Assembly (NCBI GenBank): GCA_964418895.1
Contig: CAYQND010000002.1
Location: forward strand, 212,093 to 276,092
Reading direction: 5' to 3'
Origin: an uncultured Lentimicrobiaceae bacterium
Lineage (GTDB): Bacteria; Bacteroidota; Bacteroidia; Bacteroidales; F082
DNA: 64,000 bases
Position 1 is the first letter of the stretch, and each line of letters begins with the position of its first letter. The translations under genes were made by a program, and so were the position numbers. This document shows positions 4,954-60,683 of the stretch, one piece after another. The notes beneath the pieces are model-generated. The model did not search any database. It saw nothing but the letters and a program-made list of their open reading frames with translations, and was not told the DNA's origin.

Positions 4954-5670
4954 ATGAGTGATATTTCGGATAGAATCCTTTACGAAGACAACCATCTCAT
5001 CGTGGTGAACAAACTTCCGTCGGAAATCGTTCAGGCGGACAAGACCGGCGACGTCTGTCTCCTTGACGACGTGAAGGAATACATCAAGGAAAAATACAAC
5101 AAGCCGGGCAATGTCTATGCCGGACTTGTTCACCGCATCGACCGCCCCGTGAGTGGCGCCGTGATTTTCGCCAAGACCAGCAAAGCCTTGTCGCGCATGA
5201 CGGTGATGGTCAAGGACCGTGACTTTCAGAAGACTTATCTCGCCATCGTCAAGAACCATCCGCCCAAGGAAGCCGACGTGCTTGAGGATTATCTCGTGAA
5301 GAACGAGAAGATGAACAAATCTTTCGTCACCACGCCCGACAACAAGGAGGCGAAATTGGCAAGGCTGAGTTATCGCGTCATCGGTAAATCCGACAATTAC
5401 TATCTACTTGAAATAGAATTATTTACAGGCCGACATCATCAGATAAGGGCGCAGTTGGCACATATCGGCTGTCCCATAAGAGGCGATCTGAAATACGGGT
5501 ATCCGCGCTCAAACCGTGACGCTTCCATCTGTCTGCACGCTTACAGGGTGGCGTTTGAGCATCCTGTTCAGAAAACCCATGTCGATGTTGTGGCGCCGTT
5601 GCCCGACACCTTGCTGTGGAGTTGTTTCAGAGACGCGCTGGACAATGGCGGCGCCGTTGCCGAACCTTGA
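4954..5670 (+). CDS. RluA-family pseudouridine synthase
   Basis: HRIDRPVSGAVIF contains the catalytic Asp motif, and GRHHQIRAQLAHIG is typical of RluA/RsuA-type synthases. Confidence 0.88.
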   Translation: MSDISDRILYEDNHLIVVNKLPSEIVQADKTGDVCLLDDVKEYIKEKYNKPGNVYAGLVHRIDRPVSGAVIFAKTSKALSRMTVMVKDRDFQKTYLAIVKNHPPKEADVLEDYLVKNEKMNKSFVTTPDNKEAKLARLSYRVIGKSDNYYLLEIELFTGRHHQIRAQLAHIGCPIRGDLKYGYPRSNRDASICLHAYRVAFEHPVQKTHVDVVAPLPDTLLWSCFRDALDNGGAVAEP

Positions 5671-33874: not shown

Positions 33875-35947
33875 ATGAGTCAGAACATTTCTAAACTTAG
33901 AAATATCGGTATTGCTGCCCATATCGATGCAGGTAAGACCACGGTATCCGAACGAATCCTGTTTTTTACCGGTGTAAACCGCAAGGTTGGTGAGACGCAC
34001 GACGGTGCCGCCACCATGGATTTCATGAAACAGGAACAGGAACGTGGCATCACCATCGCTTCGGCGGCTATCACCACACATTGGAACGATTATCAGATCA
34101 ATCTTATCGATACTCCCGGTCACGTGGATTTCACCGTTGAGGTGGAGCGTTCGCTTCGCGTCATCGACGGCATGGTGGCTGTATTTTGCGCCGTCGGCGG
34201 CGTCGAGCCGCAAAGCGAGACGGTGTGGAACCAGGCCGACAAATACCGCGTGCCCCGCATCGCTTTCGTGAACAAGATGGACCGCACCGGTGCCGACTTC
34301 AACGAAGCGGTTGCGCAAATGAACCGTTATCTCGGTGCCAACGCCGTGCCGCTGCACCTTCCCATTGGGGTCGAGGCTTCTTTCGAAGGCATGGTGGACC
34401 TTGTCAACATGAATGCCGTCCTTTTCAAAGACAAGGAAAGAATTGTCGGACCCATTCCCGAAGCCATTATGGAACAGGCTCAGGCTGCCCGCCATAACCT
34501 TATCGAGAAGGTCGCTGACCTTGATGACGATGTCGCCGAACTTTATCTCGACGATGCCGAAATCCCTGTCGATTTGCTGATGTCGGCCATCCGCAAAGCC
34601 ACCATCAAGTTGATGATGGTCCCGGTACTTTGTGGTGCCGCATACAAGAACAAAGGAATCCAACTCCTGCTTGACGCCATCGTCGATTACCTGCCTTCTC
34701 CGAAAGACATCGGCGCTGTCATCGCGCACGACCCCGACAACGAAGAAAAGACCTATCAGCGCATTCCTTCCGACAACGAACCTTTTACAGCACTTGCTTT
34801 CAAACTCATCAACGACCCGTTTGTCGGTCAGCAGACCTTCATCCGTATCTTCAGTGGCAAACTGGTCAACGGCATGAGCATCTACAACACCAACAAGGGC
34901 AAGAATGAGCGCGTGGGACGTATATTCCGCATCAAGGCCAAGGAACGTGAGGAAATTCAAGAGGCCGGCGCAGGCGAAATCGTTTCCCTCGTAGGCATGA
35001 AATACACCAAGACAGGCGACACGCTCTGCGATGAGAAGAGTCCCGTCCTTCTGGAATCCATACAGATACCGCCTTCCGTCATTGAAATGAAGGTGAACCT
35101 TAGCGACAAGAACAACCGCAACAAATTAGGCGAAGCCTTGTCGAAACTTTGCAATGAAGATCCTTCTTTCCGCGCCCATTACGACGAGGAAACCGAGGAA
35201 ACCATCATTGCAGGTATGGGTGAACTTCATCTTGAAATCATCGTCGACCGTCTGAAAGAGGAATTCAAGGTTCCTGTCACCGTCGGCGAGCCTTCCGTCT
35301 CCTTCCGCGAGACCATCACCGCTCCGTTTGAATGCAACTACAGGTATGTCAAGCAGACCGGCGGCAAGGGACAGTATGCCCATACCGTCATCCGTTTTGA
35401 GCCGAATCCGGGCAAAGGCTTCGAGTTTGTCGATGTCACCAAGGGCGGCGTCATTCCTAAGGAATACATACCTTCGGTGCAGAAAGGTCTGGCAGCTTCT
35501 ATGGCGAAAGGTCCTTTTGCCGGTTATCCCGTCATCGATGTCAAGTGTGTCCTTCTTGACGGTAGTTTCCATCCTGTGGACTCAAGCGACATGGCATTCC
35601 AGGTCTGCGCCCAGATGTGTTTCAAACAGGCGTTCATGAAAGCCAACCCGGTGATTTTGGAGCCAATGATGAAAGTGGAGATCAACACTCCGGACGACTA
35701 TATCGGAAACGTCACTGGCGATGTCAACAAACGCCGCGGCCGTATCGAAGCCATGCGCCGTTTCAGAAAGGGATCGCAGAAACTCGACGCTTTCATTCCG
35801 CTTATGGAACTCTTCGGCTATGCCACGGCATTGCGTAACCTTACATCAGGACGCGCCAACTACTCCATGGAGTTTTACCAGTACACGCCTACGCCAAAGG
35901 ACAAGCAGGAAGAAATTGTCAAAACGCGTAACGAACGAAATCAGTGA
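33875..35947 (+). CDS. elongation factor G family protein (stand-alone paralogue)
   Basis: G1 [10 protein letters not shown]2 RGITI, G3 DTPGHVDF and G4 NKMD, followed by domains II-V over 690 aa. No rpsL/rpsG lie upstream and no tuf downstream. Confidence 0.92.
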
Positions 35948-51409: not shown

Positions 51410-51483
51410 TCGGAGCGGCCGGACTCGAACTGGCGACCGCTTGCACCCCATGCAAGAATGCTAGCCAACTGCACCACGCCCCG
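51410..51483 (-). tRNA. tRNA-Pro (anticodon GGG)
   Basis: Hand-folded cloverleaf on the minus strand: acceptor CGGGGCG/CGCTCCG (one G-U), D arm GTGC-AGTTGGCTA-GCAT, anticodon arm CTTGC-AT GGG GT-GCAAG, T arm GCCAG-TTCGAGT-CCGGC (A-C mismatch at 52:62), discriminator A. CCA is not encoded. Confidence 0.85.
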
Positions 51484-53738: not shown

Positions 53739-55847
53739 ATGATGGAAGTCAACCTGCTTAATACGAAGATCGAATATCTGAAAGGTGTGGGGCCAAGGCG
53801 TGCCGAGCTGCTGCATAAGGAGATGAACGTCTATACCTATCAGGATCTGCTTAACAGATTCCCTTTCCGTTACATCGACAAGAGTCAGATTTACAAGGTT
53901 GCGCAGGTGAACGACGATCTGGTGTACTATCAGCTTATCGGCACCATCTCTGACATCCAGCTCGTAGGTGCGCCACGTGCGACGCGCGCCACGGCGCGTT
54001 TCAGCGATGAGACGGGCAGCATCGAACTGGTGTGGTTCAGGGGACTGAAATGGATTAAAACGAGTTACAAGCCCGGCGTGCGGTATGTGTTGTTTGGCAA
54101 AGCCAGCCAGTTTAACCACAACTTCAACTTCGTCCATCCTGAACTGGAACTTTACGATCCTAATGATCCCCTTGTCGGCGAAGGGCTTCAGGGCGTTTAC
54201 TTCACCACCGACAAGATGAAAGACAACGGTTTGGGAACGCGCCAAATCGCCAAGTTGCAGAAAATGATTCTTCAACAGGTGTTTGATATCATCCCCGAAG
54301 TGCTTCCGGCGCGCATCCTGCAACAGCAAAATCTCATTCCGCGCAGATACGCCTACTATCAGATTCACCTTCCGTCGAACAGTGCCGATGTGCAGCAAGC
54401 CACGCGGCGACTGAAGTTCGAGGAACATTTTTTCTTCCAATTGAAGTTGTTGCGAAACAAGAAACGTCGCGAAAACTGCACCAAGGGTCGCGTCTTCAGC
54501 AAGGTAGGTGACTATTTCAATAGCTTTTACAATGAACATCTCCCTTTTCAACTCACGAACGCCCAGAAACGCGTCATCAAGGAAATTTTCAATGATTTGA
54601 GAAGCGGACACCAGATGAACAGGCTTTTGCAGGGCGATGTGGGCAGCGGCAAGACAATTGTCGCCCTGATGGTCATGCTGTTGGCCTTGGACAACGGCTT
54701 TCAAGCCTGTCTGATGGCGCCCACCGAGATTCTGGCGACGCAACACTATGCCACGCTGAAAGAATTGTTGAAAGACATGCCTGTCACGTTTGCCCTCCTC
54801 ACTGGATCGACAAAGATTTCGGAACGGCGCAAGATACATGCCGGGTTGGAAGACGGCACCTTGCAAATCATCGTGGGCACACACGCATTGATAGAGAAAA
54901 ACGTCATTTTCAAGAACCTCGGTCTCGCCATCATCGACGAACAGCACCGTTTCGGAGTGGAACAACGTTCCAGATTTTGGGAGAAGACGGAGATGCCTCC
55001 GCACATGCTGGTCATGACGGCAACGCCCATCCCACGTACATTGGCCATGACGCAGTACGGCGATCTTGACGTGTCGAAAATCGACGAACTGCCGCCGGGA
55101 AGAAAGCCGGTCCAGACAGTCCACGTCTATCAGGACGACGGCTACCGCATCGTGCTGTTCATGAAACAGCAAATCGCATTGGGTCGGCAGATTTATGTCG
55201 TCTATCCTCTCATCAAGGAATCCGAAAAGACCGACATGATTGCGCTGCAGGAAGGCTACGAAGCCCTGCTCCGCGATTTTCAGGAACCCGAGTACAAGAT
55301 TTGCGTCTGCCACGGACAACTGAAACCTGAAGACAAAGACTTCGAGATGCAGCGTTTCGTTAACAAGGACACCCAGATCATGGTGGCGACCACCGTTATC
55401 GAAGTCGGTGTCAACGTGCCGAATGCCAGTGTCATGATCATTGAAAACGCCAACCGTTTCGGACTGTCACAACTCCATCAGCTGCGCGGCCGTGTGGGAC
55501 GTGGCGCCGACCAGTCGTACTGTGTCCTGGTCACCGACCATAAGATGACTAACGACGGCAGAACCCGAATAAAAACGATGTGCACCAGCAATGATGGCTT
55601 TGAGATAGCCGAAGTTGACCTGCAGTTGCGCGGTCCTGGCGAAACGGGTGGAACGCGTCAGTCCGGTCAGTTGGAGATGCTTATCGGCGACTTCCAGAAA
55701 GACGGCGACCTCATCCAGGAAACCCGCGCCATCGCCACAAGCCTGCTTGACGATGACCCAAAACTCGTCAAACCGGAAAACCTTATGCTCCGCGAACACT
55801 ACAAGGAACTTTTCGCCCAAACCTTCGACTGGAGCCAGATCGGGTGA
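53739..55847 (+). CDS. recG: ATP-dependent DNA helicase RecG
   Basis: YLKGVGPRRAELL at the N-terminus, a wedge region, Walker A GDVGSGKT, DEQH and QLRGRVGRG. Confidence 0.93.
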   Translation: MMEVNLLNTKIEYLKGVGPRRAELLHKEMNVYTYQDLLNRFPFRYIDKSQIYKVAQVNDDLVYYQLIGTISDIQLVGAPRATRATARFSDETGSIELVWFRGLKWIKTSYKPGVRYVLFGKASQFNHNFNFVHPELELYDPNDPLVGEGLQGVYFTTDKMKDNGLGTRQIAKLQKMILQQVFDIIPEVLPARILQQQNLIPRRYAYYQIHLPSNSADVQQATRRLKFEEHFFFQLKLLRNKKRRENCTKGRVFSKVGDYFNSFYNEHLPFQLTNAQKRVIKEIFNDLRSGHQMNRLLQGDVGSGKTIVALMVMLLALDNGFQACLMAPTEILATQHYATLKELLKDMPVTFALLTGSTKISERRKIHAGLEDGTLQIIVGTHALIEKNVIFKNLGLAIIDEQHRFGVEQRSRFWEKTEMPPHMLVMTATPIPRTLAMTQYGDLDVSKIDELPPGRKPVQTVHVYQDDGYRIVLFMKQQIALGRQIYVVYPLIKESEKTDMIALQEGYEALLRDFQEPEYKICVCHGQLKPEDKDFEMQRFVNKDTQIMVATTVIEVGVNVPNASVMIIENANRFGLSQLHQLRGRVGRGADQSYCVLVTDHKMTNDGRTRIKTMCTSNDGFEIAEVDLQLRGPGETGGTRQSGQLEMLIGDFQKDGDLIQETRAIATSLLDDDPKLVKPENLMLREHYKELFAQTFDWSQIG

Positions 55848-55868
55848 GAAGTGTTTCGTATCGTCCAT

Positions 55869-56592
55869 GGAATGCCGTAAGCATTGGCCTTGGCAGTATG
55901 GTTCATTCCTACGGAATGTTGTCATTCTCTATGTTTAGGTCTTTTTACCGACAGGTTTTCCCTACGGGAAATTAAGCTTTGATGCGTCTTCTGCTTGTTT
56001 TGTTATCGTTTATAGAGGCATTAATGGTCTGTTTTGAAACAGCCCTAAGTCAAAATGCCGTAGGCATTATCTGTCGGTAAAGACAAAGCAAATCCGATAA
56101 AACCTTATGCCAAGGCATTGACTATGGCAGTATGGTTCATTCCTACGGAATGTTGTCTTTTTCTTTGGTTAGGTCTTTTTACCGACAGGTTTTCCCTACG
56201 GGAAATTAAGCTTTGATGCGTCTTCTGCTTGTTTTGTTATCGTTTATAGAGGCATTAATGGTCTGTTTTGAAACAGCCCTAAGTCAAAATGCCGTAGGCA
56301 TTATCTGTCGGTAAAGACAAAGCAAATCCGATAAAACCTTATGCCAAGGCATTGACTGTGGCAGTATGGTCCATTCCTACGGAATGTTGTCTTTTTCTTT
56401 GGTTAGGTCTTTTTACCGATAGGTTTTCCCTACGGGAAATTAAGCTGTGATGCGTCTTCTGTTCGTTTTGTTATCGTTTATCTAGGCATTAATGGTCGGG
56501 TTTTAACAACCCTAAGTCAAAATGCCGTAGGCATTATCTGTCGGTAAAAGAGAGCAAATAGTTGATAGTGAATGCCGTAGGCATTGACCATC
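55869..56592 (+). repeat. tandem array of three 234-bp copies of a hairpin-dense non-coding element
   Basis: The anchor TGGCAGTATGG recurs at 55891, 56125 and 56359, an exact 234-nt period. Copies 1 and 2 are nearly identical and copy 3 carries scattered substitutions. No ORF of 60 aa or more is present. Each unit carries five short perfect hairpins plus an 11-nt long-range inverted repeat. Confidence 0.9.
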
Positions 56593-56652
56593 GAAAAAAA
56601 CGGCAAGGCAGGCTCTTTTCATCTTCTTTTCCCGACACATTCAAAAAAAAAC

Positions 56653-56660
56653 TATTTTTG
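56653..56660 (+). promoter_or_regulatory. -7 promoter box TATTTTTG
   Basis: 29 nt upstream of the ATG at 56690. Confidence 0.45.
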
Positions 56661-56689
56661 TGACAAACAAAGATAATCTATAACCTATT

Positions 56690-57685
56690 ATGAAACAAGT
56701 TTTTACGTTTATCGCGGCAGCATTTCTTCTTGTTGTCGTCGGCTGCCAGCCAAAAACCGGAAACAACAACGACACTACGGAATCATCCGTAACACAGCCA
56801 GAACAGTCCGTCATGACGCCAATCGCACTGAAGGACTGTAACCTTGCATTCACCAGCACCAGCGACATGGTGTTTTTAGCCAACGCGGATAGCAACGCCG
56901 TAGCGCCTTTCGACGTAGAAAAAGACACGGTTTTCAATTACGTTTTCGTCACCGACCTCAACAGGTTCTATTACACAGTGAAGACGAACAACACGCTGAA
57001 GCTCAGATATATCGACTTCAACGACGAGACTGTTGTCCCACACGATGTCATCGACTGGGGCAAAACGCCACAGGATTGTTTTTCGGAAACCGACGGCCTT
57101 CCTGCCAAATTAATCTACAAGAACAACAGCCTTTACATTGCTTGTGATTTCGATTGGGACAGCTACAATTTCAGTCGCGCCATGGTTTACGATCTGACGA
57201 CTAACACCTTGCGTAAGTCAAAACTGACAAATAACAGCAACGAGTATATGGATCTCATCACTTCCAATAACGATGAAGGCTCGGATTCCTTTAGCATGCA
57301 GAATCAGCAGTATTACTATAAGATGAATGGCAAGAAAGTCTGTCTGAGCGACAAGATCGACTTCAACAGCCTTGTCTCCGACCCTGATTATGCTGAGCCC
57401 AGAGAGTTCTTTTATCCGGCTATTTCGCCCGATGGCAAGCGGGTTTGTTACGGCGTGATGGTGGAGATGGGCGACCTTGGCCATGGACCATACTGCATCG
57501 CCAACCTTGACGGCAGCGGACAAAAGGCGTTGAAGGGCACCGACTTGTCAAACAGCTACAAGCCTAAGTGGACTGAAAGCGGCTCGCTTGTCTTTATCTC
57601 CGACACGCTGCTGAACGTAATCCGTCCAGCTCAGAGCGAGCCTGAAGTTTTGTATGATAGGACGAAAATGTTTGTCATTAAATAA
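56690..57685 (+). CDS. hypothetical lipoprotein (possible beta-propeller; PD40-like segment)
   Basis: Lipobox LLVVVGC. ISPDGKRVCYG resembles a TolB/PD40-type repeat. No firm family assignment. Confidence 0.7.
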   Translation: MKQVFTFIAAAFLLVVVGCQPKTGNNNDTTESSVTQPEQSVMTPIALKDCNLAFTSTSDMVFLANADSNAVAPFDVEKDTVFNYVFVTDLNRFYYTVKTNNTLKLRYIDFNDETVVPHDVIDWGKTPQDCFSETDGLPAKLIYKNNSLYIACDFDWDSYNFSRAMVYDLTTNTLRKSKLTNNSNEYMDLITSNNDEGSDSFSMQNQQYYYKMNGKKVCLSDKIDFNSLVSDPDYAEPREFFYPAISPDGKRVCYGVMVEMGDLGHGPYCIANLDGSGQKALKGTDLSNSYKPKWTESGSLVFISDTLLNVIRPAQSEPEVLYDRTKMFVIK

Positions 57686-57691
57686 TTTCTC

Positions 57692-58258
57692 ATGAATAAA
57701 AAGTTATTTCTTCTTGTCATGGTGACGATGTTCGTCGCTGTGGCTTATGCTCAGAACGGGTCGTTTCCGACAGTGTTAGCTGAGTTGATGGACAAGGAAC
57801 ATGTTGCTCAGGCCAAGGCTGACATCGCCGCTTTCCGTCAGAATGAGATGGAAAATGACGAGTACCTCTCTGAAGCGGAACTCGGGTTCCGTTGCGACAC
57901 CTTTGCTATCGAGCATTTCCGCGTGATGCGCAACGACATCGACATTACCGATTTGGGCATGCGGCAGACCGAGTCTGCGTGCTACGACGCCTACGACGCC
58001 CTTCTCAACAAATATTACAAGTTGCTGAAATCAAGCTTGAGTGAAGCCGATCAGGCTGTACTTCTCAAGTCGCAACGCAGTTGGCTCGCCTATCGCGACA
58101 ACGAATTCGACTTAGTCAAGTTGCTCAACAAGGATGAGTATTCTGGAGGCGGCACGATTTCGCTTCTCATAGCAGGTTGCCGTGAGACGGACATTGTGAA
58201 GGACAGGGTGTTGAAATTGGCTTGGTATTGGATTAGTGTGTCGGACATGGCCGAGTGA
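57692..58258 (+). CDS. DUF1311 (LprI-like) domain protein, secreted
   Basis: Signal peptide. CYDAYDALLNKYYKLLKSSL...QRSWLAYRDNE matches the DUF1311 pattern. Confidence 0.75.
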   Translation: MNKKLFLLVMVTMFVAVAYAQNGSFPTVLAELMDKEHVAQAKADIAAFRQNEMENDEYLSEAELGFRCDTFAIEHFRVMRNDIDITDLGMRQTESACYDAYDALLNKYYKLLKSSLSEADQAVLLKSQRSWLAYRDNEFDLVKLLNKDEYSGGGTISLLIAGCRETDIVKDRVLKLAWYWISVSDMAE

Positions 58259-58282
58259 AGCAGTCCGCGACGGCAAAACGGG

Positions 58283-58780
58283 CTACTTTTCGGAGTCTCT
58301 CATCCTGTTGATGATAGATGTGGTGGAGTAACCTTCCACGAGGTCAACGGTCACCACGCTTCCGCCATGTGCTGTGACGATGTCGTGCCCCACGATGTCT
58401 TCAGGTTTGTAGTCCTTGCCTTTCACCAGCACGTCGGGTTGCACCATCTTGATCAATTCGTACGGTGTGTCTTCGTCGAACAGCACGACGGCATCGACAA
58501 ACTGCAAGGATGCAAGCAGCAAGGCGCGGGCAGCCTCATCATTCACGGGACGCTGTTCGCCTTTGAGTCGGCGCACCGAGGCATCGGCGTTCAGACCAAC
58601 GATGAGCACATCGCCGCAGTCGGCAGCCTGTGCGAGGTATTCCACATGTCCGCGATGAAGTATGTCGAAACAACCGTTGGTGAAGACAATGCGTTTTCCC
58701 GAACGGCGCCATTCGTCAAGTCTTGCGACGAGCGCATCGCAAGAAAGGATTTTGTCATTGATTTTCCGTAAAGTCTTCAT
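58283..58780 (-). CDS. cytidylyl/adenylyltransferase family protein (RfaE domain II-like, heptose-1-phosphate adenylyltransferase type)
   Basis: TNGCFDILHRGH contains the HxGH nucleotidyltransferase motif. 165 aa. The listed ORF start at 58903 is an unsupported extension. Confidence 0.8.
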   Translation of the reverse strand: MKTLRKINDKILSCDALVARLDEWRRSGKRIVFTNGCFDILHRGHVEYLAQAADCGDVLIVGLNADASVRRLKGEQRPVNDEAARALLLASLQFVDAVVLFDEDTPYELIKMVQPDVLVKGKDYKPEDIVGHDIVTAHGGSVVTVDLVEGYSTTSIINRMRDSEK

Positions 58781-59291
58781 TGTCAGCCGTATTATGGTTA
58801 GATATTCTAAACGAAAAGAAACGATTGAAGAAATAGCTGAACAGCACCGAGATGATGCCAATGAGGATATACGACAGCGTTGGGAAGATGCCGCAGACCT
58901 CAACGAAGAATTTCAGACCGCCATATACGATAAAAACGTTCACCACAGACACCATCAGGTAACGGAAAATCTGTGCTTTACCGCCCAAAGATGACTCGGA
59001 GAAGGTGATGTGACGTGCCAGCCAGAAGCCTGTCAGGAAGGTGATTGGCCATTTGAAGACAAACGAAGCGATGTGAGGCGTGAAGGTGACAAGGTTACCA
59101 AGTTGAAACAAGGTTCTGTGGAATACGTAATGGTAGAAAACGTAATACAAGATGGTGTCAAAGACCATGTTGAGGCCACCCGTGAATCCGTAGCGGAAAA
59201 ACTGCAAGCTGCACACTTTGTGGAACGGCGGATAAAAGAAATCGACGACCGACCAAAGTGCGTGCTGAATTTTTTCCTCAAAGCGTTTCAT
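58755..59291 (-). CDS. GtrA-family membrane protein
   Basis: FFRYGFTGGLNMVFDTILYYVF and 4 TM segments are typical of GtrA-like proteins. It overlaps the downstream gene by 26 nt. Confidence 0.75.
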   Translation of the reverse strand: MKRFEEKIQHALWSVVDFFYPPFHKVCSLQFFRYGFTGGLNMVFDTILYYVFYHYVFHRTLFQLGNLVTFTPHIASFVFKWPITFLTGFWLARHITFSESSLGGKAQIFRYLMVSVVNVFIVYGGLKFFVEVCGIFPTLSYILIGIISVLFSYFFNRFFSFRISNHNTADNEDFTENQ

Positions 59292-59309
59292 CGTTGTTGT
59301 TTAAGACAA

Positions 59310-59317
59310 CAAAAGTA
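59310..59317 (-). promoter_or_regulatory. -7 promoter box (minus strand TACTTTTG)
   Basis: The + strand reads CAAAAGTA, 18 nt upstream of the ATG at 59291. Confidence 0.4.
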
Positions 59318-59377
59318 AGCAAAATAGCTTTTCATCCTGAAAATGAGCGGAACATAGGAAGGATTCCGCCACATTTC

Positions 59378-59785
59378 CTATTCTTTACCAGGCACGGTGT
59401 CCTTGATGCTTCCAACCAGACCCTCGAAGAAGGGGCTGACACTCTTGAAAAGTTTCTGAGCGCCATTGGCGACTTGTGTGGCTCCGGCCTTGGTGGCAAA
59501 GCCGACATACTCGCCGCGAAGCCGTGTGAACAAGGTTTTTTCCTCGTCGCTGAAACGGCTCAGGTTGTCGCGGTACTCCTCGACCATTGCCTTATACTCG
59601 TCGAATGAATAGTCCCAGTCCTCATTGGTGAAGTTTGGATATTCGCTTCTTGTGGAGTCGATGAACTGTTGGGCGCGTTTCATGAACGTTCTTTGGCTGC
59701 CACTTTTGAAGGCCACTTGATGTTCCTGTCCGAAAGCTGTCATGGCTGTCAGGCAGAACAAGGCGATTACAATTAGTTTTTTCAT
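59378..59785 (-). CDS. hypothetical secreted protein
   Basis: Signal peptide MKKLIVIALFCLTAMTAFGQ. It starts 13 nt after the stop of the mevalonate-kinase-like gene. No family recognised. Confidence 0.65.
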   Translation of the reverse strand: MKKLIVIALFCLTAMTAFGQEHQVAFKSGSQRTFMKRAQQFIDSTRSEYPNFTNEDWDYSFDEYKAMVEEYRDNLSRFSDEEKTLFTRLRGEYVGFATKAGATQVANGAQKLFKSVSPFFEGLVGSIKDTVPGKE

Positions 59786-59798
59786 GACTTCTCAACGT

Positions 59799-60683
59799 TT
59801 AAATCCATATTACATTATATGACTCCAGCAATTTTGATGCCGAATCCACGTCGTCGGTGAATCCGAGCATGTAGCCTCCTCCTCCGGAACCTGAAATCTT
59901 GACGCCGAAATGGAAATCGGGTCTCATTTCGAATAGCGGCAACGTGTTGTCAGTAATCATGGGCAGCAGAAATGTCATCTGAGCCGCAGACAAGCATCCA
60001 AGGGAGTCGAAAAAGTCCTTCACATCGCCTTTCAGCATGGTTTCAATACATGATGTGACATGAGGAACATACTCTTTCTGAAACCGAATCAGAAAGTCTT
60101 CATCCATTCGTTTTTCCTTGAAATAATTCACCAGAGGTCCCGTCTTGCTTCTCCTTCCAGTGTCGATGAGACAGACACGAATTTCTTTGTTCAGGAAGCC
60201 TTCGTCGAGCAATTCCAACTTTCCATCCTTGATCTGGAATGGCTTGCCAAGGTAACACTGCAGCGGGTCGATGCCCGAACTGCTGCCGTGAAAATAACTC
60301 TCCATCTGTCCGAATAGACGCTTCAGAGCCATCGTGTCGTCTGTTGTCTGTCGTCCGTAGCGTTTATAGACAGCCGCTACCAGAACTCCGGAACTACCTA
60401 ATCCATAACTACTTGGCACATCGGAATAAAGAAACAAGCCTTTGTCTAAATCATCAGCCAAGCGTTTTAAGTCGAGTTTGTCGCCAAAATCGGTTTGCCC
60501 TGACAAATAGTCGGCGAAACGCCGGATGGCGGCATTGGAAGATTTCTCCCTTTCGTCGGTCAAAGTGTTGCCGAAACTCCAGTATGCCTTGAATTTCCTG
60601 AAAGGAATCATCAAGGCCACGGAATCGAATATCATCGAATACTCGCCGAAAAGGATGATTTTGCTATAAAACACTTCGTCCAT
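59799..60683 (-). CDS. GHMP kinase (mevalonate kinase-like)
   Basis: SKIILFGEYSMIF is an N-terminal GHMP substrate motif and SSYGLGSSGVLVAAV is the GHMP ATP-binding loop. It lies 3 nt downstream of the decarboxylase gene. Confidence 0.75.
   Translation of the reverse strand: MDEVFYSKIILFGEYSMIFDSVALMIPFRKFKAYWSFGNTLTDEREKSSNAAIRRFADYLSGQTDFGDKLDLKRLADDLDKGLFLYSDVPSSYGLGSSGVLVAAVYKRYGRQTTDDTMALKRLFGQMESYFHGSSSGIDPLQCYLGKPFQIKDGKLELLDEGFLNKEIRVCLIDTGRRSKTGPLVNYFKEKRMDEDFLIRFQKEYVPHVTSCIETMLKGDVKDFFDSLGCLSAAQMTFLLPMITDNTLPLFEMRPDFHFGVKISGSGGGGYMLGFTDDVDSASKLLESYNVIWI

Follow-up and report, generated by a model that had tools for sequence, protein, structure and literature searches.

The recG gene (53739–55847, + strand), whose product carries the Pfam domains RecG_wedge, DEAD, Helicase_C and RecG_dom3_C and whose start was fixed by an identical 702-aa protein (P0015), stops 22 nt before the first hairpin of an array of tandem repeats, the only locus with such hairpin modules in the window (the whole 64-kb stretch of DNA that was analysed). 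Downstream of the array lies a two-gene operon on the + strand (56690–58258), encoding a 331-aa lipoprotein with no Pfam match (56690–57685) and a 188-aa LprI-domain protein (57692–58258). The genes neighbouring the array encode a thioredoxin-reductase-like protein, a GSCFA protein, RecG, the lipoprotein, the LprI-domain protein, a cytidylyltransferase and GtrA. The sequence-only reading of this DNA had reported no open reading frame of 60 aa or more after recG, and the longest stop-to-stop frame in 55848–56689 is indeed only 50 codons. Its statement that no −7 promoter box lies inside the array also holds, as a regex scan found a single + strand box of the Bacteroidetes type, TAnnTTTG (56653–56660), which is outside the array and serves as the −7 box of the lipoprotein gene. 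In three related species with RecG proteins 83–85% identical (RecG clusters P0016 and P0022, with four assemblies between them, and P0027 with a single one), recG is separated by 70 nt from a convergent cytidylyltransferase gene or overlaps it, and the array together with the two downstream genes is therefore a lineage-specific segment of about 2.4 kb (55848–58282) where relatives have 70 nt. Homologues of the downstream lipoprotein were found at no more than 35% identity and in unrelated contexts; it was the RecG homologues that gave the orthologous loci instead.

Tandem Repeats Finder returned the exact 234-nt recurrence claimed earlier as one array (55891–56559, period 234, 2.9 copies, 95% matches, no indels, score 1198), which is the sole sizeable tandem repeat in the window. 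A repeat search placed the in-register 234-nt copies at 55881–56114, 56115–56348 (97%) and 56349–56582 (71% ungapped), with the low value of the third copy due to a 1-nt deletion and a different tail. We delimited the repeat units as 55891–56124 (unit 1), 56125–56358 (unit 2) and 56359–56595 (unit 3). Units 1 and 2 differ at five positions (55924, 55927, 55931, 55934 and 56124), and unit 3 is the most complete, as its closing hairpin AATGCC-GTA-GGCATT is intact and followed by TGACCATCGAA. The array is preceded by a solitary hairpin of the type that forms the outer hairpin of an inverted module (GAATGCC-GTA-AGCATTG, 55870–55886), recognised through repeat family D3 and alignment A1; the five copies of this family start at 55870, 56053, 56287, 56520 and 56570. 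The solitary hairpin corresponds to the one at the close of every unit, which brings the array to a length of about 3.1 units, and the bracketing sequence GAATGCCGTA(A/G)GCATTG noted previously was found at both 55870 and 56570. A CRISPR array had already been excluded, correctly, as whole 234-bp units repeat at 90–98% identity and there are no short repeats with unique spacers.

Each unit is a doublet, consisting of a forward (F) module, a centre segment and an inverted (R) module. All hairpins described in the sequence-only reading were present: CATTCC-TAC-GGAATG at 55904, TTTCCC-TAC-GGGAAA at 55957, CTGTTT-TG-AAACAG at 56029, AATGCC-GTA-GGCATT at 56054 and ATGCC-AA-GGCAT at 56107. They are arranged in modules with the order outer hairpin, spacer of approximately 25 nt, an arm of sequence T(T/C)TACCGA(C/T)AG, 3 nt, and an inner hairpin whose core is CC-TA(A)C-GG, so that the conserved single-stranded signature, TTTACCGAYAG, lies between the two hairpins. 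The arm, whose complement is CTRTCGGTAAA (or GGTAG in some Flavobacteriia), is located 3 nt from the inner hairpin. F module 1 (55902–55973, + strand) thus reads CATTCC-TAC-GGAATG, 25 nt, TTTACCGACAG, GTT and TTCCC-TAC-GGGAA, and R module 1 (56053–56121, − strand), when read on the + strand, is AATGCC-GTA-GGCATT, AT, CTGTCGGTAAA, about 25 nt and ATGCC-AA-GGCAT. The long-range inverted repeat formed by TTTACCGACAG (55944) and CTGTCGGTAAA (56071) had been described as an 11-nt pairing; it is present, but its arms are longer, spanning 24 nt with 83% complementarity at a distance of 90 nt, and pairing of these arms dominates the minimum-free-energy fold. Two of the motifs exceed chance: the window contains 12 copies of the heptamer CCTACGG where 2.7 are expected, with 10 of the copies falling in the array, and ATGCCGTAGGCAT with up to two mismatches has 10 sites in the window (eight of them in the array), against 1.2 expected.

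The centre segment (55974–56052 in unit 1, containing CTGTTT-TG-AAACAG at 56029–56042) is lineage-specific and recurs in units 2 and 3. The replacement of its stem in the third copy by GGGTT-TTAAC-AACCC (56498–56512), to which the earlier reading drew attention, is real but amounts to one comparison only, and the segment with the swapped hairpin is not conserved in relatives.

The sequence-only reading had proposed looking for a co-occurring RAYT- or IS200-like tnpA gene, and this proved productive: the module was found inverted on both sides of small, single-copy, IS200-like Y1 HuH transposase genes in four genomes elsewhere (loci L014, L064, L065 and L066), from Flavobacteriia and a Balneolaceae MAG and representing two phyla (Bacteroidota/Balneolaceae). 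In L064 the layout is doublet, gene, doublet. We built a covariance model (R2) solely from modules that flank such Y1 genes, eight in number and taken from L064 (Antarcticibacterium), L065 (Confluentibacter) and L066 (Balneolaceae), all of which were reached by protein homology. With filters on or off, this model gave exactly six full-length matches in the window, all in the array. The + strand matches (33.7–39.6 bits, E 3e-7 to 6e-6) are F module 1 (33.7 bits, E 5.7e-6), F module 2 (56136–56207; 35.8 bits, E 2e-6) and F module 3 (56370–56441, with the arm TTTACCGATAG; 39.6 bits, E 2.7e-7). The − strand matches (23.2–23.8 bits, E about 1e-3) are R module 1 (23.2 bits, E 1.3e-3), R module 2 (56287–56355; 23.2 bits) and R module 3 (56520–56587; 23.8 bits, E 9e-4). 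The next best match in the window scored 8.4 bits (E 2.6), and the five best window matches of a sequence-only nhmmer profile were also in the array.

The flanked Y1 protein is 75–89% identical across genera, matches PF01797 (1.6e-28) and scores 72 bits with the NCBIfam IS200 model (cut-off 55), and 37.5 bits with the NCBIfam RAYT model REP_Tyr_transpos, below its cut-off of 80. Its motifs (DHIH, WQ and Y---Q--HH) fit those of subclass 1.2 (PMC6006769). A tblastn search detected no Y1 gene in the window. The only Y1 gene seen in a rumen MAG (L023) has hairpins of another kind on its 3′ side, and a Y1 homologue with 51% identity on a Bernardetia plasmid (L067) is flanked by other repeats; these two loci therefore provide no link of the module to Bacteroidales Y1 genes. 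As no Y1 gene with these modules was present in any Bacteroidales locus fetched, the connection of the enzyme to the repeats of the window's lineage is one that we infer. Searches of plasmids and phages with the region (blastn) gave no match, and scans of viral contigs for the module motif, the MITE end and Y1 relatives were all empty. A metagenome scan with the C-variant of the motif yielded four loci, of which two (L042 and L043) contain related but different arm-plus-hairpin repeats and the other two are chance matches.

Related doublets of 184 bp were identified in MAGs of rumen Bacteroidales, with three to six exact-motif loci in each, where they are dispersed over intergenic regions in both orientations relative to the genes. 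These rumen doublets have 13-nt terminal inverted repeats (TTCAAGTTTCGCA and TGCGAAACTTGAA), and 9 of 14 loci show perfect, AT-rich 8-bp target duplications; at least 7 of the 8 duplication positions match in 10 of the 14 loci, compared with a mean of 0.43 loci in shuffled pairings. The whole element folds as one long hairpin, which is also the RNAalifold consensus of the rumen copies; this consensus has almost no covariation and is uninformative alone, because the copies are about 90% identical. A model (R1) built from 18 rumen copies matched only the array in the window, with a full-length match to unit 3 (56351–56595, − strand, 41.8 bits, E 4.6e-9) and a match to unit 1 (55883–56118, − strand, 34.1 bits, E 4e-7), and chance carriers of the selection motif scored below 8 bits. 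Where the rumen MITE has a centre of 20 nt, this model reads the centre segment of the array as containing an insertion of 96–97 nt. No target duplication could be recognised around the array of the window, where only a 4-bp ATCG coincidence was seen, which is not significant, and the ends of the array are weakly similar (ATTGACTGTGGCA versus TTCGATGGTCA) and do not form a convincing terminal repeat.

The hairpin stems differ between lineages yet persist via compensatory changes. Across 33 modules, 88.3% of the cells were paired versus 77.4 ± 1.0% after shuffling, and double-sided changes numbered 43 versus 13 ± 4.6, with neither value reached in any of 500 shuffles, although the alignment used for these counts was fitted to the structure and thus favours pairing. 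In controls with the 3′ partner slid by 1–3 columns, 25–56% were paired.

Small, intergenic and non-autonomous MITEs with inverted ends and target duplications are familiar in bacteria, and some of them hold or form tandem repeats; the Correia elements and BrickBuilt of Porphyromonas gingivalis are examples with internal repeats. The array resembles these in general terms, but it is not known to be related to them in sequence, and its internal modules match the flanks of Y1 genes. It differs from autonomous IS200/IS605 elements, which consist of tnpA with or without tnpB and direct subterminal hairpins, in that its modules are inverted and its longest frame is 50 codons, which agrees with the earlier exclusion of an insertion sequence. 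The array and its module family share with the REP/BIME clusters and REPtrons of Enterobacteria and their TnpA_REP/RAYT proteins (Ton-Hoang 2012, as cited in PMC3733652 and PMC6006769) the extragenic hairpin repeats in alternating orientation, the tandem reiteration, the inverted placement of hairpin repeats around a Y1 HuH gene and the frequent location at gene 3′ ends. Unlike REP sequences, it has two hairpins per module with a conserved 11-nt arm between them, and a period of 234 bp instead of about 40–100 bp, and it lacks the canonical REP hallmark, a GT[AG]G tetranucleotide at the foot of the palindrome on its 5′ side. The comparison of the GTAG/CTAC core with REP heads in the sequence-only reading was thus not quite right, as TAC and GTA are located in the hairpin loops and not at the 5′ foot. 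The protein also differs from that of REPtrons, being of subclass 1.2 (IS200-like) and not class 2, with a RAYT HMM score below cut-off.

Pseudomonas REPINs (PMC3116915, PMC3337134) likewise consist of two inverted modules with a spacer, able to form a long hairpin, and are similar to the doublets described here in adjoining a conserved, single-copy Y1 gene (as in L064). In our doublets, by contrast, each half measures about 70 nt and is a double hairpin in its own right, few copies were seen, and the 8-bp target duplications of the relatives have no reported equivalent in REPINs. Another close known system is that of the TIRtrons with their TIRYT proteins and 'double palindromic TIRs' (Di Nocera et al. 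2013, PMC3733652), described mainly from Acidobacteria, Stenotrophomonas and others; neither the passages searched in that paper nor the other literature searched contained the double-hairpin module or its Bacteroidota hosts. The motifs DH[IV]H, WQ and Y---Q--HH, a length of about 150 aa, low copy number and a Bacteroidetes distribution are all shared with the subclass 1.2 Y1 HuH enzymes (Quentin et al. 2018, PMC6006769). That subclass was reported as lacking REPs, whereas a conserved double-hairpin module is present on both sides of the gene in the four genomes found here.

Our verdict is that this is probably a new repeat family of the REP/BIME/REPIN-like kind and not a new RNA gene. The three tandem double-hairpin doublets of the array would form a local cluster of a non-autonomous repeat, similar to REP/BIME or REPIN sequences and active as DNA. 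Among the four options offered in the sequence-only reading, those of a REP/BIME-like palindrome cluster and of a MITE-like element were supported, the former through the modules that flank Y1 genes in inverted orientation and the latter through the rumen doublets with their inverted ends and target duplications, and that of a structured ncRNA or 3′-UTR array was not. By analogy with IS200/IS605 and REP-RAYT systems, the hairpins would form in single-stranded DNA, where a cognate Y1 endonuclease would bind them, with the guide or cleavage sequence being supplied by the conserved arm. Y1 enzymes work on the template of the lagging strand. One doublet may have arrived downstream of recG and then been amplified to three by unequal recombination or by replication slippage between the repeated hairpins. 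The present effect of the array may be neutral, or it may function as an incidental terminator or insulator that separates recG from the lipoprotein operon acquired downstream, as every unit has a hairpin followed by a T-run on the recG strand. The more specific proposal that the 'orphan' subclass 1.2 Y1 HuH endonucleases of Bacteroidota have this module as their cognate DNA substrate, and that doublets integrate with 8-bp duplications, is put forward tentatively, as a possibility that we would not bet on. Duplications of 8 bp are not a product of Y1 'peel-and-paste' transposition, and point to an enzyme making staggered cuts or to a mechanism yet to be described.

Terminal inverted repeats combined with target duplications are the hallmark of DDE elements, and we know of no Y1 enzyme that generates them. 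The family might accordingly be an ordinary cut-and-paste MITE moved by a DDE transposase, with the Y1 flanks being captured or shared hairpins and the array a tandem MITE duplication, and the 13-nt ends and duplications of the rumen doublets, the MITE-like folding of the whole rumen element and the end-to-end alignment of unit 3 with it are all consistent with this view. We nevertheless consider it doubtful, as about 180 kb of rumen loci, plasmids and viral contigs yielded no transposase whose ends match, neither a target duplication nor convincing terminal repeats could be recognised around the array in the window, and bracketing of a Y1 gene on both sides in four genomes of two phyla is hard to explain as capture. 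Neither the loci that were fetched nor the plasmids, phages and viral contigs yielded a parent IS with the same ends and a DDE transposase, and the rumen consensus had no match in plasmids. Selection for an RNA fold, in a 3′-UTR or terminator array of recG or in tandem small-RNA genes, would account for the stem covariation between lineages, for the better folding of one unit compared to shuffles (z about −3.5, with −3.6 for the + strand and −3.4 for the − strand) and for the CATTCC-TAC-GGAATG hairpin with a T-run, a terminator-like pattern present three times on the recG strand versus 1.3 expected. This explanation is nonetheless quite improbable, since the two strands fold about equally well, the module occurs in both orientations within every unit, relatives are inserted in either orientation relative to neighbouring genes, homologous modules bracket a gene in inverted orientation, the array has no −7 promoter box of its own, and the region is wholly missing from related species. 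A search of Rfam, as suggested with the sequence-only reading, gave no relevant match at the gathering threshold or at E 10, with a tRNA elsewhere in the window and sn3060 (16.5 bits, which is noise) as the only matches.

A second type of RNA array was considered on account of the recently described UG27 systems of Bacteroidota prophages, in which sequence-diverse units of about 135–167 nt are gained and lost next to RT, sORF and bORF genes (bioRxiv 10.64898/2026.09.22.753630). The present locus, with its structured units in tandem and its Bacteroidales host, is reminiscent of such a reverse-transcriptase ncRNA template array, the units of which also come and go, but this reading fails on gene context and its probability is close to nil: no reverse transcriptase or accessory gene was present among nine genes scanned (three upstream, six downstream), the flanking genes show no signs of a prophage, and the 234-nt units are longer than those of UG27 and near-identical where UG27 units are highly sequence-diverse. 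The number of units may itself be questioned, as the third copy could have been created during assembly, or the locus could be a genuine VNTR that has 2 to 3 or more copies. A contig of a MAG of the same species (L005, GCA_029573175.1) has two units, consisting of positions 1–233 of unit 1, a G of unit 2 and then unit 3; at least 10 short-read Logan contigs end inside the repeat, and units 1 and 2 have 189 consecutive identical bases in common. We regard this explanation as unlikely, as substitutions distinguish all three units, unit 2 does not simply duplicate unit 1 or unit 3, and the two-copy form is exactly what collapse in a short-read assembly would give.

The textbook example of mobile repeats that persist over long times and are inherited vertically is that of the REP/REPIN-RAYT systems, which to our knowledge have been described almost exclusively from Proteobacteria, where the palindromes are tagged with GTAG. 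The double-hairpin module flanks an IS200-like Bacteroidota gene that is very widespread, highly conserved and present in single copy, and that previously had no reported substrate, and the same module makes up dispersed doublets and a tandem cluster in Bacteroidales. If the link between enzyme and repeats is true, the orphan subclass gains a testable DNA target, and an explanation is obtained for a class of intergenic repeats at which short-read assemblies of Bacteroidales from gut and rumen are interrupted. If the modules are indeed the cognate substrate, this would represent a second, independent enzyme–repeat partnership of the REPIN-RAYT type across Bacteroidota, with a domesticated enzyme; the target duplications of the elements make this a mechanistic puzzle, and would imply a Y1-linked (or two-enzyme) mode of insertion unlike peel-and-paste. 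In practical terms, little changes for the recG locus: its array is probably selfish or neutral repeat DNA, with possible reuse as a terminator, and is likely to be a variable-copy marker.

Downstream of recG, Tandem Repeats Finder returned a single array at 55891–56559 (period 234, 2.9 copies, 95% matches, no indels), which agrees with the exact-period tandem array proposed from the sequence alone and is the sole substantial tandem repeat within the 64-kb window. A 21-bp tandem repeat at 35271–35311 (1.9 copies, score 54) looks trivial and probably lies within a coding region. Units 1 (55891–56124) and 2 (56125–56358) differ at five positions, and unit 3 (56359–56595) has ~90% identity over its first 203 nt, a 1-nt deletion and a divergent tail. 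The sequence-only reading was borne out, with coordinates, for its five short hairpins, for the long-range inverted repeat, for the changed central hairpin of the third copy and for the bracketing GAATGCCGTA(A/G)GCATTG, and the region is indeed non-coding, with its longest frame at most 50 codons. The recurrent hairpin heptamer CCTACGG/CCGTAGG occurs 12 times in the 64 kb versus 2.7 expected, 10 of these within the array, and the only + strand −7 box (TAnnTTTG) is at 56653, outside the array as claimed and directly upstream of the next gene. On each strand, folding of a single unit surpassed that of shuffled versions (z = −3.6 and −3.4).

The array unit is a quasi-palindrome in which a single double-hairpin module is used twice, in forward (F) and inverted (R) orientation. 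The F module consists of an outer hairpin (CATTCC-TAC-GGAATG), 25 nt, TTTACCGA(C/T)AG, GTT and an inner hairpin (TTCCC-TAC-GGGAA), and is separated by a centre of ~80 nt from the R module, which reads AATGCC-GTA-GGCATT, AT, CTGTCGGTAAA, ~25 nt and an outer hairpin, this being ATGCC-AA-GGCAT in units 1 and 2 and AATGCC-GTA-GGCATT in unit 3. A lone hairpin at 55870 is a homologue of the one that closes each unit, which brings the true array length to ~3.1 units, with the + strand order R / F-centre-R / F-centre-R / F-centre-R.

Scanning a genome collection with an 18-nt motif from the window (TTTACCGAYAG-N6-CCTACGG) gave 31 loci, 23 of them in uncultured rumen Bacteroidales MAGs (RUG390, RUG11296, RUG12769, RUG13948, RUG11511, RUG382, RUG358 and 'bacterium F082'), and individual MAGs carry as many as six. 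The rumen loci have in common a ~184-bp element with its parts in the order of the window unit: CATCCC-TAC-GGGATG, ~20 nt, TTTACCGATAG, 3 nt and ATCCC-TAC-GGGAT, then a centre of ~20 nt, and finally GCATCCC-ATC-GGGATGC, 5 nt, CGGTAAA, ~20 nt and GCATCCC-ATC-GGGATGC. Copies show ~90% mutual identity across several MAG species (loci L011–L041, for example L018:3661–3845), with 13-nt inverted repeats (TTCAAGTTTCGCA / TGCGAAACTTGAA) at their ends. Perfect AT-rich 8-bp direct duplications such as TGAAATAA, ATAATTGA, TAAGATTT and TCATAGAA flank the element at 9/14 loci, and flanks agree at ≥7/8 positions at 10/14 loci, versus a mean of 0.43 loci at 7/8 in shuffled pairings; most loci are independent insertions. 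All gene arrangements and both orientations are represented among the copies, which are intergenic and often lie within 1–20 nt of a stop. These related doublets are demonstrably mobile, and the rumen element is a true miniature mobile element (MITE); the fetched loci, plasmids, phages and viral contigs yielded no parent transposase for it. A covariance model of 18 rumen copies matched the window at the array only (unit 3, 41.8 bits, E 4.6e-9, full length; unit 1, 34.1 bits), part of this score being forced because the loci were picked by the 18-nt window motif; chance-motif loci (Nitrospinota, Neptunicella, Raoultella and others) scored <8 bits.

An odd locus from the same scan, in Salegentibacter tibetensis (L014), scored 18 bits at several places and encodes a 153-aa Y1 (IS200-like tyrosine HuH) protein on the minus strand (6109–5651), with inverted modules on both sides and more doublets adjoining. 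This protein matched PF01797 (Y1_Tnp, 1.6e-28), passed the NCBIfam IS200/IS605 model (72 bits, cut-off 55) and failed the RAYT model (37.5 versus 80), and its motifs PDHIHIL, SWQ and YIQNQQKHH correspond to subclass 1.2 in the classification of Quentin et al. 2018, which lists no REPs for that subclass (PMC6006769). Homologues with 75–89% identity, labelled 'REP element-mobilizing transposase RayT' in IMG and nearly all on one contig each, are present in many Flavobacteriaceae genera and one Balneolaceae MAG. Three such loci were fetched purely by protein identity, from Antarcticibacterium arcticum CP042476 (L064:2501–2962), Confluentibacter flavum (L065:2501–2962) and the Balneolaceae MAG (L066:358–819). 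In all three, the upstream side reads inner hairpin (GTCCC-loop-GGGAC), CTATCGGTAG, ~22 nt, outer hairpin (CGTGCC-TTTA-GGTACG), ~20 nt and ATG, and the stop codon is followed by 7–45 nt, an outer hairpin, ~22 nt, TTCTACCGATAG, 3 nt and an inner hairpin. Conserved inverted modules thus bracket the subclass 1.2 gene in four genomes, L014:5651–6109 (−) included. In Antarcticibacterium the gene lies between two full doublets (F-centre-R, gene, F-centre-R), which, judged from the sequence, is how the window array would look had one R/F junction received a gene. The outer hairpin of these four loci (GTACC...GGCAC, e.g. L064:2971–2987) contains an A.C mismatch that is conserved on the F strand and reads G.T on the complementary strand, whereas the window hairpins are perfectly paired; this hints that the R-reading strand may be the one that folds, or alternatively suggests a recognition feature. 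Judged by eye, L014:5395–5516, which has a doublet on one side and the Y1 gene on the other, resembles a fragment from the C terminus of a classical IS200-type TnpA (...GYGVESTGNITDEMVNEYLEHH...), and about seven GGTGGTCGGT decamers lie at L066:31–78, near the Balneolaceae Y1 locus.

A second covariance model was built from eight modules of Antarcticibacterium, Confluentibacter and Balneolaceae only, none chosen using the window. It gave exactly six matches in the 64 kb, all full length and within the array, also with filters off: the F modules at 55902–55973, 56136–56207 and 56370–56441 (33.7–39.6 bits, E 6e-6 to 3e-7) and the R modules at 56053–56121, 56287–56355 and 56520–56587 (23.2–23.8 bits, E ~1e-3), with the next-best match at 8.4 bits (E 2.6). 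A sequence-only profile gave the same ranking weakly (best E 0.002). In the rumen elements the model also found the F half (25–34 bits), and it matched none of the chance-motif loci. Sequence comparison hence establishes the module as homologous to the flanks of Y1 genes. Its hairpins are structurally conserved, with compensatory series in the outer (CGTACC/GGCACG, CATCCC/GGGATG, CATTCC/GGAATG, AATGCC/GGCATT) and inner stems (GTCCC/GGGAC, ATCCC/GGGAT, TTCCC/GGGAA, ATGCC/GGCAT, GCCCC/GGGGC). Over 33 aligned modules, 88.3% of cells were paired versus 77.4 ± 1.0 in shuffles, with 43 double-sided changes versus 13 ± 4.6, figures which lean towards structure because the alignment was fitted to it; sliding the 3′ partner by 1–3 columns left 25–56% paired. 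Despite this fitting, the compensatory pattern is obvious by eye in the aligned sequences. Almost no variation is seen in the T(T/C)TACCGA(Y)AG arm or in the CC-TA(A)C-GG cores.

The closest named RecG is that of Candidatus Limimorpha (Bacteroidales, 84% identity). In three related, Ca. Limimorpha-like species (RecG 83–85%), a convergent cytidylyltransferase gene lies 70 nt beyond recG or overlaps it, and next come GtrA, DUF6565, GHMP kinase and MVD genes. The window flanks match this order, with a ~2.4-kb segment (55848–58282) inserted between them that comprises the 842-nt repeat region, a 331-aa lipoprotein gene and an LprI-domain gene and is missing from the orthologous recG junctions. The lipoprotein has no homologue of >35% identity among 5.8 billion proteins. 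The array thus belongs to a young, lineage-specific segment. The convergent − strand block from 58283 to 60683 and beyond (cytidylyltransferase, GtrA, DUF6565, GHMP kinase and diphosphomevalonate-decarboxylase-like; mevalonate pathway) is syntenic with the relatives. Same-species short-read contigs terminate within the repeat, and one same-species MAG contig spans the array with two units, its unit 1 equalling that of the window for 233 nt, followed by the G that ends unit 2; with 189 identical bases, this form is expected of unequal crossing-over or assembly collapse. Of the three copies originally read, at least two are certain, and the third depends on the window assembly.

The array region had no Rfam match at gathering thresholds and noise alone at E 10, which left the family match sought for the unit wanting, and blastn against plasmids and phages gave zero matches. 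The sole gathering-threshold match in the window is a tRNA gene at 51410–51483 (−, 47.5 bits). Orientation, context and Rfam evidence led us to reject an RNA role, earlier entertained as a structured RNA, as well as a UG27-type array and a CRISPR array, the last already dismissed in the sequence-only reading.

IS200/IS605 TnpA and TnpA_REP recognise hairpins in single-stranded DNA, with a short guide sequence beside the hairpin. The array hairpins may form in single-stranded DNA and be bound by a cognate Y1 enzyme, the conserved arm being a putative guide or cleavage region, and the local triplication could have arisen via recombination or slippage between modules, an origin proposed for BIME and REP clusters (PMC3733652). 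In its workings the array resembles a REP/BIME cluster, one of the options offered, or a tandem REPIN set, but two features set it apart from canonical members: its module has no GTAG foot, unlike canonical REP/RAYT, and the associated protein is IS200-like subclass 1.2, unlike class 2 RAYTs. The 'TIRtron with double palindromic TIRs' (Di Nocera, PMC3733652) is the nearest published description, and the literature searched describes neither the module itself nor repeats linked to subclass 1.2.

Mobilisation as a MITE by a DDE transposase stays a serious rival for the origin of the array. To our knowledge, Y1 chemistry does not yield 8-bp target duplications, so those of the rumen relatives are unexpected for an element of Y1-type modules; moreover, the surroundings of the window array showed no such duplication, and the co-occurrence with tnpA that had been put forward as a check was seen in the four bracketed genomes but in none of the Bacteroidales loci fetched. 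Taken alone, the locus is commonplace selfish DNA; what merits pursuit is the tie between its module and an orphan subclass of enzymes, together with the puzzling target duplications. With a hairpin and T-run in every unit on the strand of recG, the array could plausibly serve, incidentally, as a terminator or insulator in front of the lipoprotein promoter (56653).

Other subclass 1.2 Y1 genes adjoin other repeats, with CGTGTC-TCC-GACACG (5200–5440) beside that of a rumen MAG (L023:5441–5749, −) and a repeated GTTGC-AGA-GCAAC hairpin with a 51% identical protein on a Bernardetia plasmid (L067:1290–1480), which suggests clade-specific enzyme-repeat pairs resembling those of RAYTs. A metagenome contig carries an 81-bp tandem repeat (L042:6630–6812, 2.3 copies) of arm plus inner hairpin (CTACCGACAGGTTGCCCCTACGGGGC) in direct orientation without the outer hairpin, and a similar pair with GTCCC-TAC-GGGAC is present in L043; by sequence, both are related to yet distinct from the window module. 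In an Odoribacter sp. MAG (L035:7489–7762), R and F modules ~160 nt apart form a gene-less 'empty' cassette with an arm and inner hairpin 97% identical to the window over 30 nt (TTTACCGACAGATTTTCCCTACGGGAAA).
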